A DNA stretch of 36,261 bases from a virus (lineage: Duplodnaviria; Caudoviricetes): the IMG/VR virus record IMGVR_UViG_3300030037_000041, one strand, 5' to 3'. The translations under genes and the position numbers were made by a program. The notes beneath the pieces are model-generated. The model was not told where the DNA came from, searched no databases, and worked only from the letters and a program-made list of their open reading frames with translations. Below are positions 7,210 to 36,261 of the stretch, piece after piece (within the stretch, counting starts at the first letter, position 1; each line of letters begins with the position of its first letter).

Positions 7210-7404
7210 ATGATCACCATGCGTACCCCGACAGTTATTTACGAAGCATTACCCAATATCTACCTCTTTCTGGCCGTACTAACCGCCTATAAATTGCCCA
7301 GCGCCTTGGTCTCCGTTGTTATGTTTTTAGCCGCAGCTTACCTGGTTAAAAAATGGCGAACAAATAACCGTAACAAACGAACAGTCAAACGGCGAGTCAG
7401 ATGA
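7210..7404 (+). CDS. Small membrane protein
   Basis: Two hydrophobic stretches and a basic tail; AGGAG RBS. Confidence 0.55.
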   Translation: MITMRTPTVIYEALPNIYLFLAVLTAYKLPSALVSVVMFLAAAYLVKKWRTNNRNKRTVKRRVR

Positions 7405-7622
7405 TTCAAGTCGCGATCCTTATTAGTGGGCTAGCCGCCATCTGGTTAGCAACGCATAAATGCCCTAAGCATCAGCGTTACGCCTGTTTGTTTGGCTTGG
7501 CTGGGCAACCCTTTTGGATCGTTAGCGCATATACCACCGAGCAATGGGGAATCTTAGTGCTCGCTATTATGCACGTGATTGTATGGGCGTCATCGTTCCA
7601 TCGGCATTGGTTGAAAATATAA
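7401..7622 (+). CDS. Small membrane protein
   Basis: Three hydrophobic segments with GLAGQPFW; its stop codon lies within the first attC core site. Confidence 0.6.
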   Translation: MIQVAILISGLAAIWLATHKCPKHQRYACLFGLAGQPFWIVSAYTTEQWGILVLAIMHVIVWASSFHRHWLKI

Positions 7623-7678
7623 CGCCTGTTAATAAGCTGCTGCGCTCTTTGCAGTCGGTTTGATAAACCTTGTTATAC
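7617..7678 (-). repeat. Integron attC-like site 1
   Basis: Minus strand GTATAAC-AAGGTTTA-TCAAACCGACTGC-loop-GCAGCAGCTTA-TTAACAGGC-GTTATAT; the + strand folds with unpaired G and T. Confidence 0.75.
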
Positions 7679-7699
7679 GATTAATTTTAAGGAGTTTTT

Positions 7700-7888
7700 A
7701 TGGAATATATGGAGAGAAGAATGCAGGATATTTATGATGGTTTTGATGCAAAGGTTTCTCAATTAGACCCGTTCATTAATGATTTGTTAGTTGCTTGTAA
7801 AAAGCACGGTATTGATAACGATGATCTCAATTTTGTTACGGAGCTATTTAATAAGGGCTACATGCCTAAATTAAATGGGGACGTATAA
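7700..7888 (+). CDS. Cassette-borne hypothetical protein (62 aa)
   Basis: AAGGAG RBS; bounded by GTTATAC (7672) and GTATAAC (7883); AT-richer than its neighbours. Confidence 0.7.
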   Translation: MEYMERRMQDIYDGFDAKVSQLDPFINDLLVACKKHGIDNDDLNFVTELFNKGYMPKLNGDV

Positions 7889-7943
7889 CGCCCACATATA
7901 AGCGGTGGCGTCTTTTGCCATCCGCTTGATTAGCTTGTTAGGC
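7883..7943 (-). repeat. Integron attC-like site 2
   Basis: Minus strand GCCTAAC AAGCT AATCAAGCGGATGGC AAAAGAC GCCACCGCTTATA TGTGGGC GTTATAC; same layout as aadA7-type attC. Confidence 0.85.
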
Positions 7944-7962
7944 ATTTTAAAGGATAAGAAAA

Positions 7963-8430
7963 ATGAAAATTGAAAGTACACAGATAACAAAATTAACACT
8001 AAGTGACCTTGATAATTTAGACCCCGTTTCTGTTATTGCGGAAGACATTGCAAATGGTAGGGGGAAAATAAGTTTCGAATGTTACGGCAAAGCATTTAGC
8101 GCATATTGGGGAGGAATGGGCGACAACACGATTGCTGAGTTTTTTTGCTCTTGTGACGAACACTATATTGCCAGCAACGTAAGCGGTATGGATTCAGAGG
8201 TTTATGACATTGACGCTATTCGAAAGGCGGCAGAAGAAAAAGGCATTGAATGCCACCGAGATGACCCTTGGAATGATTACGAGTTTATGGATGCCATGTA
8301 TGGCGGCGACATGAGTGACTGGCACTACAACCTACCTAGAATGCCGAACCACGAATACGAATATTTATGCCGAATCATAAAAGCAGTGCAGGTAGGACTT
8401 ACGGAGCAAGCGGCCTGCAAGGCTGCCTAA
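7963..8430 (+). CDS. Cassette-borne phage-type hypothetical protein (155 aa)
   Basis: AAGGA RBS; bounded by GTTAGGC (7937) and GCCTAAC (8425). Confidence 0.75.
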   Translation: MKIESTQITKLTLSDLDNLDPVSVIAEDIANGRGKISFECYGKAFSAYWGGMGDNTIAEFFCSCDEHYIASNVSGMDSEVYDIDAIRKAAEEKGIECHRDDPWNDYEFMDAMYGGDMSDWHYNLPRMPNHEYEYLCRIIKAVQVGLTEQAACKAA

Positions 8431-8476
8431 CAGCGTATTAAGCGGCATTAAATTCCCCTTAATACGATATTAAAGC
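8425..8476 (-). repeat. Degenerate attC or attI-position site
   Basis: GCCTAAC followed by inverted repeat CGTATTAAG/CTTAATACG; no closing GTT core and no bulged bases. Confidence 0.5.
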
Positions 8477-8527
8477 CCCAAAGCGGGAATAACCCAGTAT
8501 AAAAAACATAAAGGCCGCAACAAAAAA

Positions 8528-9088
8528 ATGAGCAAAAAAAGATTCATCCAAAGCGCATCAGCCATACTACTTTTTCAAACAGGTGAAAAACCTTGTGTTG
8601 ATAAAGCCGTTAGATATGCCGAAAAGCTATGGGAAAAGCTCACCGAAAAAGGCTATGGCGCGTCAACAAAAGAGCACCGGCCGCGCAGCAGCAGAGACTA
8701 CTACAAACTGTTAAGCGAGCATCAGCGCAAAGCCTTTAACTTGTTCTGGAACGCCTTTGGCCATAAGCATGGGCGTGATGGAGCCGCTATGCGCTTTGGG
8801 CAATTGGGCGAACTAACATCAGCCGAGTATAAAATTATTATAGAGGCAGCAAAAAAAGAATCACTTAGGCAATTGCCGTACGGGCAAAGCCGAATCATGG
8901 CTCAAGGCTGGCTAGAAGAAAAACGCTATAACGACTACACCCCAGCACAAAAATCAAAAGCCTCAAGTCAGGTCGGAAAAAGTAATCTGCGCAATGAGAT
9001 GGCCAGTTTGAACCAGCTGCAATCAGCAGCGCCTTCGCCAACTATGGCTAAACGAATTAAAGAAATTGAGCGAAAGCTTAAGGCATAG
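8528..9088 (+). CDS. Hypothetical DNA-binding protein
   Basis: FNLFWNAF...K...AQGWLEEKRYND resembles the C-terminal motif of phage replication-initiator-like proteins. Confidence 0.5.
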   Translation: MSKKRFIQSASAILLFQTGEKPCVDKAVRYAEKLWEKLTEKGYGASTKEHRPRSSRDYYKLLSEHQRKAFNLFWNAFGHKHGRDGAAMRFGQLGELTSAEYKIIIEAAKKESLRQLPYGQSRIMAQGWLEEKRYNDYTPAQKSKASSQVGKSNLRNEMASLNQLQSAAPSPTMAKRIKEIERKLKA

Positions 9089-9468
9089 TGATGGAGTTGC
9101 CTGATTACCTTTCACAAAACTCACGATATATTGCCGAAGAAATAGGCTTAGACGGCCTGATGAGGCTAGTAAAGCGCTATGGTGGATTAGTGATAAGAGT
9201 TTCAGAAAAAAGCGACTTAAAAGAAACGCTCACCGAGGGTCAATACAAACATTTCTTGCATATTTTTCGTAATGAAAAGCTATTTATTCCACGTCTACAG
9301 GCAAAGAAAAATCAACTAACAAAAGCAGAAACGCAACGTCTAGCGCAGCAAGGCATGACCAGAGCAGCTATTGCAAGAAAGCTCTGCGTGACTGAGCGTA
9401 CCGTTTATAATCGCTTGTCGTCTGATGCGGATGAAAACGACAAGCATCAAGGTGATATTTTCAAATAA
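9088..9468 (+). CDS. Mor/C family transcription activator
   Basis: LP...EIGLDGLMRLVKRYGG...LFIP plus C-terminal HTH TRAAIARKLCVTERTVY; precedes the late genes. Confidence 0.85.
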   Translation: MMELPDYLSQNSRYIAEEIGLDGLMRLVKRYGGLVIRVSEKSDLKETLTEGQYKHFLHIFRNEKLFIPRLQAKKNQLTKAETQRLAQQGMTRAAIARKLCVTERTVYNRLSSDADENDKHQGDIFK

Positions 9469-12007: not shown

Positions 12008-13489
12008 GTGTCTTTAGAAACACTATCTCCCGATGCATTACTTGCTAACGTAGGCTTTTCAAGCTGCACACTTGGCGATTTAACCAGTGATCCCGATGCG
12101 GGGGATGCCAGTTGGTGTATTGCCAGCGATAACAATACGAATACAGAAGTTCGTGTTTCATTCCCCACCCCGTCCGGCGCACCTAATATTGGGGCAGCGT
12201 TACAAAATGCCAAAGCCGAAGTACGTCGAACCACCGGATCAGGTACAACTGACCCTACCGCACATCTTGAATTATGGGAAAACGGTGTGTTGGTTCGTGC
12301 TGGGTCTGATGTTGCTATTTCATCAGATGTGGCGCAGATTTTACAATTTGATTTTGATGCCAGTGAGCTCGCTAATGCAGACGGTTCTTTAGTTGAACTT
12401 CGAGTTGTTGCCACTAAATCAGGTGGTTCACCCGCAAAACGCTCTGCCGTTGATGTTGGCGGTATCGAATGGAACGCCGATGTTGCAGCAGCGGCGATAA
12501 ATTTAACCGCAGCGGATAGCGATTCAACCCCCTCTATTGATAGTGGCGCCATTACTCAAACTCACGGATTAACCGGTTCAGATGCCACCGAAACAGGCAC
12601 AACCGATAACGGTACCATCAGTCAAACTCACGGATTAAGCGGAACCGATGCCGATCAAACAGGCGAGGCAACCACAGGCGTGGCCAGCCAAACGCACGGA
12701 TTAACAGGAACCGATGCAGATGCCACACCAGCGGCCGATACGGGCGCGGTTAGCCAAACAATTTCACACAACCTGGTAGCGCAAGATGCAACATCAACCC
12801 CAACGATTGATACCGCTGGCATTGCTCAGTCTCATGCTTTATCCGGCAGTGATTCAAGCGCAACCGGCGATAATGAAGCTGCAAACATCTCACAAGCACA
12901 GCAACTATCAGGAGTGGATGCTGACAGTTCAACCAGTGCCGATACCTCGGCCATTACGCAACAACATGATGTTCTTGCTCAGGGCGCAGACGCAACACCC
13001 TTGGCGGACACTGGCCAAATCAGTCAAGGGCACGGTTTATCTGGAGCCGATGCGAGCGAAACCGGCGCTCTCGACAACGGCAATATCTCCCAAACTCATA
13101 CGCTATCTGGTAGCGATGCCGAGGCCACCGCCAGTGCTGACACCGGAATAATTATCTCGTCAGGTGCGCATGAATTAACGGCAGCTGACTTAATAGCGAC
13201 CCCGTCTATTGATGGGGCCGCTATTACTCAAACTCATACATTGACTGGAGCTGATGCCGAACAAACTGGCGAAGCAGCAGCAGGCCAAACTAGCCAAACA
13301 CACCAACTTTCAGCAACCGATGCGCAAGCAACAGCCAGTGCCGGTAGCGCTAATCTAGCAGACATTGGCATTGGCAAAATAACAAACCCCAGCATCGTCA
13401 ATATCAGCAGCTTTAAAGCGACCAAAGCCTTAAAGCAGCTTAAAGCCGTACAAAACATAGCCTCTCAACGAACCATTAAAGCAGCTTAA
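12008..13489 (+). CDS. Repeat-rich putative virion fibre or decoration protein
   Basis: About 13 tandem 22-aa repeats (ISQTHxLSGxDAxxTxxxDxGx) after a globular N-terminal domain. Confidence 0.65.
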   Translation: MSLETLSPDALLANVGFSSCTLGDLTSDPDAGDASWCIASDNNTNTEVRVSFPTPSGAPNIGAALQNAKAEVRRTTGSGTTDPTAHLELWENGVLVRAGSDVAISSDVAQILQFDFDASELANADGSLVELRVVATKSGGSPAKRSAVDVGGIEWNADVAAAAINLTAADSDSTPSIDSGAITQTHGLTGSDATETGTTDNGTISQTHGLSGTDADQTGEATTGVASQTHGLTGTDADATPAADTGAVSQTISHNLVAQDATSTPTIDTAGIAQSHALSGSDSSATGDNEAANISQAQQLSGVDADSSTSADTSAITQQHDVLAQGADATPLADTGQISQGHGLSGADASETGALDNGNISQTHTLSGSDAEATASADTGIIISSGAHELTAADLIATPSIDGAAITQTHTLTGADAEQTGEAAAGQTSQTHQLSATDAQATASAGSANLADIGIGKITNPSIVNISSFKATKALKQLKAVQNIASQRTIKAA

Positions 13490-34915: not shown

Positions 34916-35044
34916 GACCAGTCTGATGCATCAACATCGGACTGGTCACCAACCCACAGGAATACAGCCTGTGAGCCAGTCAAGGCTTCCCGCCGCGTCG
35001 ACGCAGCAAAGGAAGCCTAGCACAAATATAAATAAAGGCTCACA
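34916..35044 (+). ncRNA. Structured RNA leader of com
   Basis: Three hairpins (34916-34947, 34955-34973, 34983-35018) plus an 8-bp alternative pairing with the start region. Confidence 0.6.
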
Positions 35045-35184
35045 TGATCGAAGTACGATGCAATCGCTGCAGTAAATTATTAGCTAAAGCGTTATTCAAA
35101 CAGATAGAAATTAAATGCACCCGCTGCAAAACAATTAATTTTCTGAAGGCCAATGAGCCTACCGTCACGATATGGGTTAATTGA
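35044..35184 (+). CDS. com: Com family zinc-ribbon regulator (46 aa; missing from the ORF track)
   Basis: MIEVRCNRCSKLLAKALFKQIEIKCTRCKTIN. Confidence 0.92.
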   Translation: MIEVRCNRCSKLLAKALFKQIEIKCTRCKTINFLKANEPTVTIWVN

Positions 35185-35655: not shown

Positions 35656-36261
35656 ATGAGCGCTAAACAGCCTTCAGCGGAAAAGCGTTGCCAAGCTATT
35701 GAGGCTGGACTGGTGTTGATTAAATCCGGATTGCCACCCACGAAGGCATGGGAGACTGTAGGCAAGCAGTTTAATGTTCATAAGAACGTTGTTTATCGGT
35801 GGTATGGAGCAGTGCGTGGTAAGCCTCGACAGGAATGGTTGGATATATTGACGGCGAAACATAAAGGACGGACAGTAACCGCGCCTTTTAGTGAGAAAGC
35901 TTGGGACTATTTTCTTGATGCTTACAGCAAGAGTAGCCCGCCCAGCATGTCAGAGGCTTATGAAAAAACGCTTGTAGAATCACGTCTGCAAAACTGGTCA
36001 TTTCCCTCGGTCAGAACTGTCCAGCGTAGAGCTAAATTATCAGGCATTTCTAGGCGGTATATGTATGACATTCACGATGACGTTTGGGAGTGCTTTTTAA
36101 AGATCTATAAGGCGATGTCACAGCCTAGTTTTTCATTAGCTTATAAGGAGACGTCTGAGGTAGCTAAAAAGAACGGTTGGCAGATGCCATCATATGATGC
36201 GTTTCGACTGCTATATAACATGAAGGGTTTCGAGTTAAGGACTATTTACGACAACGATTAA
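35656..36261 (+). CDS. Stand-alone MuA end-binding domain protein (I-beta plus two I-gamma-like), no catalytic core
   Basis: Aligns by eye with the end-binding region of this phage's MuA (AWDYFLDAY..P...W.FPSVRTVQRR vs AWEFIKADY..P...WAIPAQRTLERR); second copy VWECFLKIY...WQMPS. Confidence 0.75.
   Translation: MSAKQPSAEKRCQAIEAGLVLIKSGLPPTKAWETVGKQFNVHKNVVYRWYGAVRGKPRQEWLDILTAKHKGRTVTAPFSEKAWDYFLDAYSKSSPPSMSEAYEKTLVESRLQNWSFPSVRTVQRRAKLSGISRRYMYDIHDDVWECFLKIYKAMSQPSFSLAYKETSEVAKKNGWQMPSYDAFRLLYNMKGFELRTIYDND

Follow-up and report, generated by a model that had tools for sequence, protein, structure and literature searches.

It is fairly probable, in our judgement, that the early operon of the Mu-like prophage described here carries two gene cassettes bounded by reversed attC sites and a likely attI-like docking site (the dock), with the integron integrase of the host likely being used in trans to add and remove cassettes. 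The reversed sites are confirmed below from their sequence, and the borrowing of the host enzyme is what we infer from the parts found together in one genome. An earlier sequence-only reading had seen the operon as a capture platform that borrows a host integrase; the reversed attC sites, the lack of a phage integrase, the uninterrupted host IntI, the dock and the occurrence of cassette 1 elsewhere favour that proposal, but the sister phage differs by the whole block.

The window (the whole stretch of 36,261 nt that we analysed) is a Mu-like prophage in which MuA, MuB, the late activator and Mu-type head genes are present (PHROG 310, 296, 836, 113, and 328), and it lies on the minus strand of a complete 2.56-Mb host genome (G000), with the prophage repressor just beyond the left end of the window. 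The cassette feature sits inside the early operon between a gene of 73 codons (7401-7622) and a gene of 186 codons (8528-9088), and the local phage genes are all on the + strand. We found no match to PF00589 or TIGR02249 in the 36,261-nt window, and all eight PF00589 matches in G000 fall outside the prophage, in keeping with the earlier claim that the window encodes no tyrosine recombinase. Elsewhere in the prophage we noted a 493-residue ORF (12008-13489) without a PHROG or Pfam match, located between the lysis-side genes and the small terminase, and a second, short MuA-like ORF at the right end (35656-36261). By eye there were tRNA-like fragments near both prophage ends (G000:C1 about 1669350 and 1631550); ARAGORN found no whole tRNA on the flanks at these positions.

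The reversed attC sites and the genes between them

Site 1 (7617-7678, 62 bp) and site 2 (7883-7943, 61 bp), both of which the sequence-only reading had picked out as attC, have their bottom (recombining) strand on the + strand. On + the elements of each follow in the order TAAC core, spacer, left box, short hairpin, unpaired T, two base pairs, unpaired G, spacer and GTTA core, and each has the inverted core boxes RYYYAAC and GTTRRRY plus inner L boxes. In site 1 the unpaired T and G of the right arm are at 7655 and 7662 (spacers 7/6, predicted crossover 7622|7623); in site 2 they are at 7921 and 7928 (spacers 7/5, predicted crossover 7888|7889), and this second site has a loop, GTCTTTT, like that of host sites. 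We ran a covariance model, trained on 11 attC bottom strands of the host and its genus with the phage sites excluded, on both strands. Site 1 (30.7 bits, E 3e-5) and site 2 (40.4 bits, E 1e-7) were matched on + alone, with nothing on the minus strand over the sites, and after these two the next of the 16 matches in the window scored 16.4 bits. As a control on the strand call, the same model puts the published M16-3 integron and CALIN, as well as TJE1, in the standard orientation. Since the matches lie on the strand of the genes, the sites are reversed relative to them, and the earlier claims as to position, identity and the strand of the unpaired G and T all stood. [quoted passage not shown] A site nearly identical to site 1 occurs in another viral locus (L103), and sites nearly identical to site 2, with other flanks, occur in run X4.

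Several other lines of search were set aside. A third model match (35026-35097, E 0.12) was rejected as an attC, as it overlaps the start of a small zinc-finger ORF and is without a core, and a loose TAAC-N-GTTA pattern was uninformative (12 matches versus 8 expected by chance). Folding energy was dropped as a strand test since it did not tell the strands apart (-6.8 versus -6.2 and -14.9 versus -13.3 kcal/mol for the strand pairs). Compared with shuffled sequences, site 1 folds no better (z -1.35) and site 2 has z -4.6; in constrained folds the probability of the recombining fold was 0.015 and 0.006 for the two phage sites and 0.014-0.40 for host sites, which puts the phage sites at the low end. 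The spacers (7/6 and 7/5) are longer than the 6/5 of host attC sites. Spacers of 7/6 were present in 7 of the 15 viral matches of a pattern search (two of the seven belonging to one array), and 7/5 spacers were met in this window alone; because the 7/6 type recurs in other phages, we take it for a kept variant and not plain decay.

The left boundary gene (7401-7622, +) encodes a 73-residue small membrane-type protein (PHROG 2421), and its stop codon, TAA, supplies the left core of site 1. Under the reversed reading, cassette 1 extends over 7623-7888 and holds a 62-codon gene (7700-7888, +) that belongs to no family, has its own ribosome-binding site and has six homologues (64-87% identity). 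Cassette 2 (7889-8430) holds a 155-codon gene (7963-8430, +) of phage family PF26211 (phiTE_072-like), which has no known function. To the right, the 186-codon gene (8528-9088, +) is a conserved phage gene with 16 viral relatives and lies outside the cassette system. Because the genes are on the attC bottom strand, not the top as in standard cassettes, attC precedes the gene and three genes stop at TAA|C; this layout, with the crossover right after the stop, had been proposed for the two cassette genes, and the 73-codon gene proved to end likewise. On the other strand of the cassettes the longest stop-free stretches are 32 and 58 codons. The locus is not a complete integron, as intI does not adjoin attI and the genes are on the bottom strand. 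The sequence-only reading had also pointed to 7-mers that are exactly complementary around each cassette gene and inexact at the two ends of each attC. These are as it described, but as a cassette signature they are weak evidence alone, because either orientation would produce them and the pool is dominated by a few.

Neither cassette gene was found elsewhere in G000, a search of 300 other genomes of the order did not turn up the cassette 2 gene, and the cargo looks, from these searches, to be drawn from a phage pool and not from host arrays. Our scan for promoter-like and terminator sequences gave matches at chance level, with no promoter-like site at the dock. Contigs of RNA libraries from one study span parts of both cassette genes, although these could be DNA. 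Cumulative GC skew places the attC bottom strand on the template of the lagging strand at both phage sites and at 13 of the 15 in the host. Replication of Mu starts mostly at its left end, and this too would expose the + strand. A bottom strand on the lagging-strand template favours folding, raises recombination and accompanies small arrays, according to the parts of PMC5371416 that treat it.

The probable attI-like dock and the integron of the host

At 8425 the sequence-only reading had placed a third attC half-site, and here we depart from it: the element (8425-8476) is instead an attI-like site on the minus strand. Its core is GTT (predicted crossover G8431|T8430), its spacer has 5 bases, and it has a left box and, upstream, an A/T-GGG-AATT block resembling that of the host attI. 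When scored against 10 attI sites of the genus it ranked first of the 709 GTTR positions in the window, with a mean score of 30.4 against 21.5 for the next position and a background of 8.2 (sd 4.2), and it was the best nhmmer match in the window (E 0.12). Genome-wide, its nhmmer match was not significant (E 8.8, 7.6 bits) and the eight attI copies of the host scored 34-53 bits; the dock aligns with the crossover-proximal half of the attI model alone.

We compared the dock with the 400 bases upstream of integron integrases, having dropped 1 of 19 genus loci and 3 of 30 other loci for a short flank or no candidate; the 30 loci from other families were the best-scoring IntI matches of 151 genomes, not a random draw. 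Among these 45 integrase-adjacent regions the top match was the attI of this very host (score 39), and the 18 genus loci (median 27, best 39) scored higher than the 27 loci of other families in the order (median 16, best 27), in a comparison where the attI sites of the genus share the A+T richness of the dock and related loci do not count as independent. The dock of the distant Mu-like phage L021, the one reciprocal control and from a phage whose host is not identified, had the opposite preference (genus median 17, best 24; other families 24 and 37), resembling attI of other families in the order. Pairs of non-cognate attI and IntI are generally inefficient, as stated in sections of PMC8946536. 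On these comparisons of sequence, and since it has the place, strand and register that an attI would have, the third element is likely better taken for an attI-like dock similar to the attI of the host itself.

Across viral contigs, a 16-base dock pattern gave 56 loci (21 with attC matches and 35 without), near which 38 of 42 attC matches, by hand count, lie on the same strand and on the array side; these 38 come from 17 loci on 11 contigs, or about nine distinct phages. The dock motif thus terminates reversed arrays in other phages, and its core is common to those docks; scores of pattern-found docks against this dock would be circular and were not used. The L021 locus (8480-9210) lies in a complete 38.8-kb Mu-like provirus without a tyrosine recombinase and consists of one reversed cassette, a direct duplication of roughly 170 bp and the dock.

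As for the integrase, the sequence-only reading had suggested a search for intI in the host, and G000 proved to have one that is uninterrupted (TIGR02249, 427.5 bits, positions 1-315, no stop), accompanied by attI and six cassettes and located ~0.8 Mb from the prophage cluster. An IntI above the cut-off was found in 18 of 22 genomes of the family. G000 contains eight attI copies (C1 546619, 1131185, 1799828, 1803204, 2062118, 2130636, 2521873, and 2461940) of two sequence types, one beside intI and seven without it, several of which head short cassette arrays. Seven of eight gaps between host attC sites are standard, none is reversed and one is unclear. At one attI copy the first host cassette is reversed (L049:116-574, G000:C1 2062116-2062574), its 152-codon gene, of no PHROG family, having its stop TAA|C directly at attI. 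The loops of the host attC sites match those of the phage sites. In the host integron (L048, G000:C1 2458900-2461960) the first cassette recurs as the fifth and is followed by three short tandem core copies; to judge from sequence, the repeat and the core copies are a sign of past integrase activity. No match to a LexA box was seen upstream of the host intI, nor any match to a dif pattern. There is also an integrase fragment with an internal stop (G000:C1 1166407-1166673), which matches the IntI model in its C-terminal part with 113 bits.

These host sequences bear on two other explanations. That a piece of a chromosomal attI array of the host was captured upside down, with cassettes whose genes were reversed by chance being retained, is very unlikely: neither cargo gene occurs in the host arrays, gene 2 belongs to a phage family and was not found in the 300 other genomes of the order, the host gaps are nearly all standard, and the dock has diverged much further than any of the host copies and has a core common to the docks of other phages, even though the scattered attI copies (seven of eight without intI), the single reversed host cassette, the host-type attC loops and the published prophage M16-3, described in its report as having a host-type attI and a CALIN, would all suit such a capture. 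We think it extremely improbable that the sites are used by a recombinase other than the host IntI, such as the integrase of a co-infecting phage or another host tyrosine recombinase; the host has seven further PF00589 matches and the phage spacers are unlike those of host sites, but the unpaired G and T are at canonical attC positions, the dock fits the host attI type, and the experiments described in PMC9892861 found reversed PH101 sites to work with IntI1.

Related phages and change at the locus

Viral contigs, scanned three times by protein and once by DNA, yielded a single sister phage, L009, and there was none among 50,697 GenBank phages; the other 13 matches of one viral-contig scan were rejected as short chance matches. 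L009 has 25 bp where the window has a 907-bp block (7616-8522), its breakpoints being 7 bp and 92 bp off the crossovers with homology resuming at 8523, and it carries a 96% identical copy of the 73-codon gene. A contig of run X6 is of the same empty type, run X9 yielded a 166-base piece only, and the region is absent from all 21 other genomes of the family. The sequence-only reading had looked to related Mu-like prophages for cassettes varying exactly at the TAAC junctions and had counted breakpoints elsewhere against itself. This expectation was disappointed, as the sister is without the whole block and its breakpoints are off the crossovers, which tells in part against the reading, though at the level of the platform and not of a single cassette; the platform as a whole is variable. 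No holder or relative examined had gained or lost one cassette by itself: over 8,186 bp L077 does not differ at all, and every holder of the full stretch has the same cassette content. No excision joint was found in the contigs of 8 of 11 runs (three possibly the source), and contigs drop rare forms. Among distant Mu-like relatives there was no attC match at the corresponding position, although L021 has one 2 kb downstream.

These observations lend some weight to a different history, which we nevertheless hold to be rather unlikely, in which an integron integrase built the dock and cassettes while they were in another phage, and illegitimate or short-homology recombination then carried them into this phage as one block of 0.9 kb, so that they would be expressed and no longer shuffled. 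The empty forms with breakpoints off the crossovers, the identical content of every full-stretch holder, the weak folds and the long spacers would all be expected of such a passenger, and a homologue of the left boundary gene is a reversed cassette elsewhere (L094/L102), ending in the same 8 bases. However, the two sites, the reading frames of both genes and the core of the dock are all intact, spacers of the 7/6 type persist in other phages, and the dock finds its best match in the attI of the present host. In addition, the 25-bp filler of L009 resembles a shortened dock (14 of 200,000 shuffles, with a pattern chosen post hoc), and as a dock-like remnant it would make the empty form the derived one. 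We rejected the idea that the cassettes had inserted at a GTT occurring by chance in the L009 allele, as neither junction retains the flanking bases of L009.

Other phages tell more about the cassettes themselves. A homologue of cassette 1 (82%) occurs in L078, a metagenome contig whose early genes are of lambdoid type. It lies there among five sites that the model calls reversed, and the sequence past both flanking sites is unrelated to the window; cassette 1 is recognisable by its sequence as a mobile cassette, being the same unit in another context with its boundaries at attC. The attC body that travels with gene 1 may be the upstream or the downstream one (identity 0.65 and 0.70; 90th percentile of the background 0.68). 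For cassette 2, none of 20 viral homologues has an adjacent attC model match, though one looks attC-flanked by eye, and the PF26211 gene is free of attC in nearly all other phages examined. Taking 12 viral loci and the window together, 22 of the 43 gaps between sites are reversed, 5 are standard (four of them from L105) and 16 are unclear, and 38 of the 43 have exactly complementary ends; L094 was omitted from this count as a duplicate of L102, and single sites give no gap. We also noted that a chromosomal attC of the host's genus (L035:3248-3311) is nearly the reverse complement of L078:3271-3332, which lies in the reversed array of an unrelated phage.

Proposed mechanism and comparison with known arrays

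According to the relevant sections of PMC8946536 and PMC4889954, IntI recombines attI, as double-stranded DNA, with the bottom strand of attC in folded form, the joint being at G|TT, and most attI/IntI pairs are cognate. In the borrowing that we favour, the host IntI would bind the dock as double-stranded DNA, together with the + strand of an arriving circular cassette in folded form, and would cut at G|TT, inserting the cassette at 8430|8431. Insertion there would place the newest gene at the array end away from the early promoter, and cassette 2, because it adjoins the dock, is likely the newest. Recombination of attC with attC would excise cassettes. Lying as it does on the attC bottom strand, each gene would be expressed from the early transcript, using its own ribosome-binding site, and a cassette promoter would be unneeded. 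With the reversal, genes would be oriented along phage transcription and the recombining strand would still be exposed. Host-type cassettes landing in the phage would be silent, and the cargo would likely come from a pool common to phages of related marine hosts, not from the host's standard cassettes.

A wider proposal, which we put forward tentatively and with some doubt, is that phages run a mirror-image integron on the host enzyme, with a dock tuned to the host attI type, reversed polarity acting as a filter, and ordinary phage genes such as those of PF26211 turned into cassettes. Polarity could act as a filter because phage cassettes in host arrays and host cassettes (including defence genes) in the phage dock would both be antisense and silent. 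If true, integrons would also drive the turnover of phage accessory genes, in a gene pool separated from that of the host by strand polarity, and conversion of the PF26211 type would offer a handle on how cassettes are made. What this case contributes is the cognate host integron in the same genome as the phage array, together with the crossed comparison of docks with attI sites; with phage, dock, cassettes, host IntI and attI in one complete genome, the borrowing of a host integron can be addressed with cognate parts.

Bacterial CALINs, as defined in PMC4889954, resemble the window in that each has two attC sites or more and lacks a nearby intI; half of CALINs were in IntI-encoding genomes and mobilisation in trans was proposed, in the part of that report (Cury et al. 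2016) which deals with them. The window differs from those described there in its likely attI at the end, its reversed genes, its transposable-phage carrier and its predicted expression from a phage operon on the side away from the dock. Sedentary chromosomal integrons, including that of the host, share with the window the attC anatomy, the G|TT crossover, an attI-like entry and the loop type, whereas the window has no intI, no dock promoter and bottom-strand genes, and its newest cassette is predicted to be farthest from the promoter (sections of PMC8946536 and PMC5371416). In the Shewanella prophage M16-3 (MZ568829), as far as its report describes it, a host-type attI likewise heads an integrase-less cassette array, but this prophage is P2-like and cryptic, has its own complete integron and carries standard cassettes that run against the phage late genes; its attI is one base off the chromosomal attI, whereas the dock of the window is diverged.

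Our survey of the open-access literature turned up CALINs in phages, but reversed arrays, a host-matched dock and such arrays in Mu-like phages were nowhere described in it. Qi et al. 2023 described 17 phage CALINs with IntI1 recombination for five of six sites, in the portion of PMC9892861 on these assays, where two sites of phage PH101 recombine with attI1 via IntI1, the bottom strand better than the top. PH101 (also H101, of Pseudoalteromonas) is like the window in having a reversed phage attC cluster without intI, but it is a lytic phage of 132 kb and the window is a Mu-like prophage. The passages of PMC9892861 on PH101 call its layout typical and contain no dock, no remark on reversal and no link to a host IntI or attI. 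By our strand calls, the reversed layout is already present in this published and assayed phage, unremarked in those passages: in the PH101 CALIN (NC_029094 75919-77987, L205) the model made four attC calls on the strand of the annotated genes, each upstream of its gene and hence reversed.
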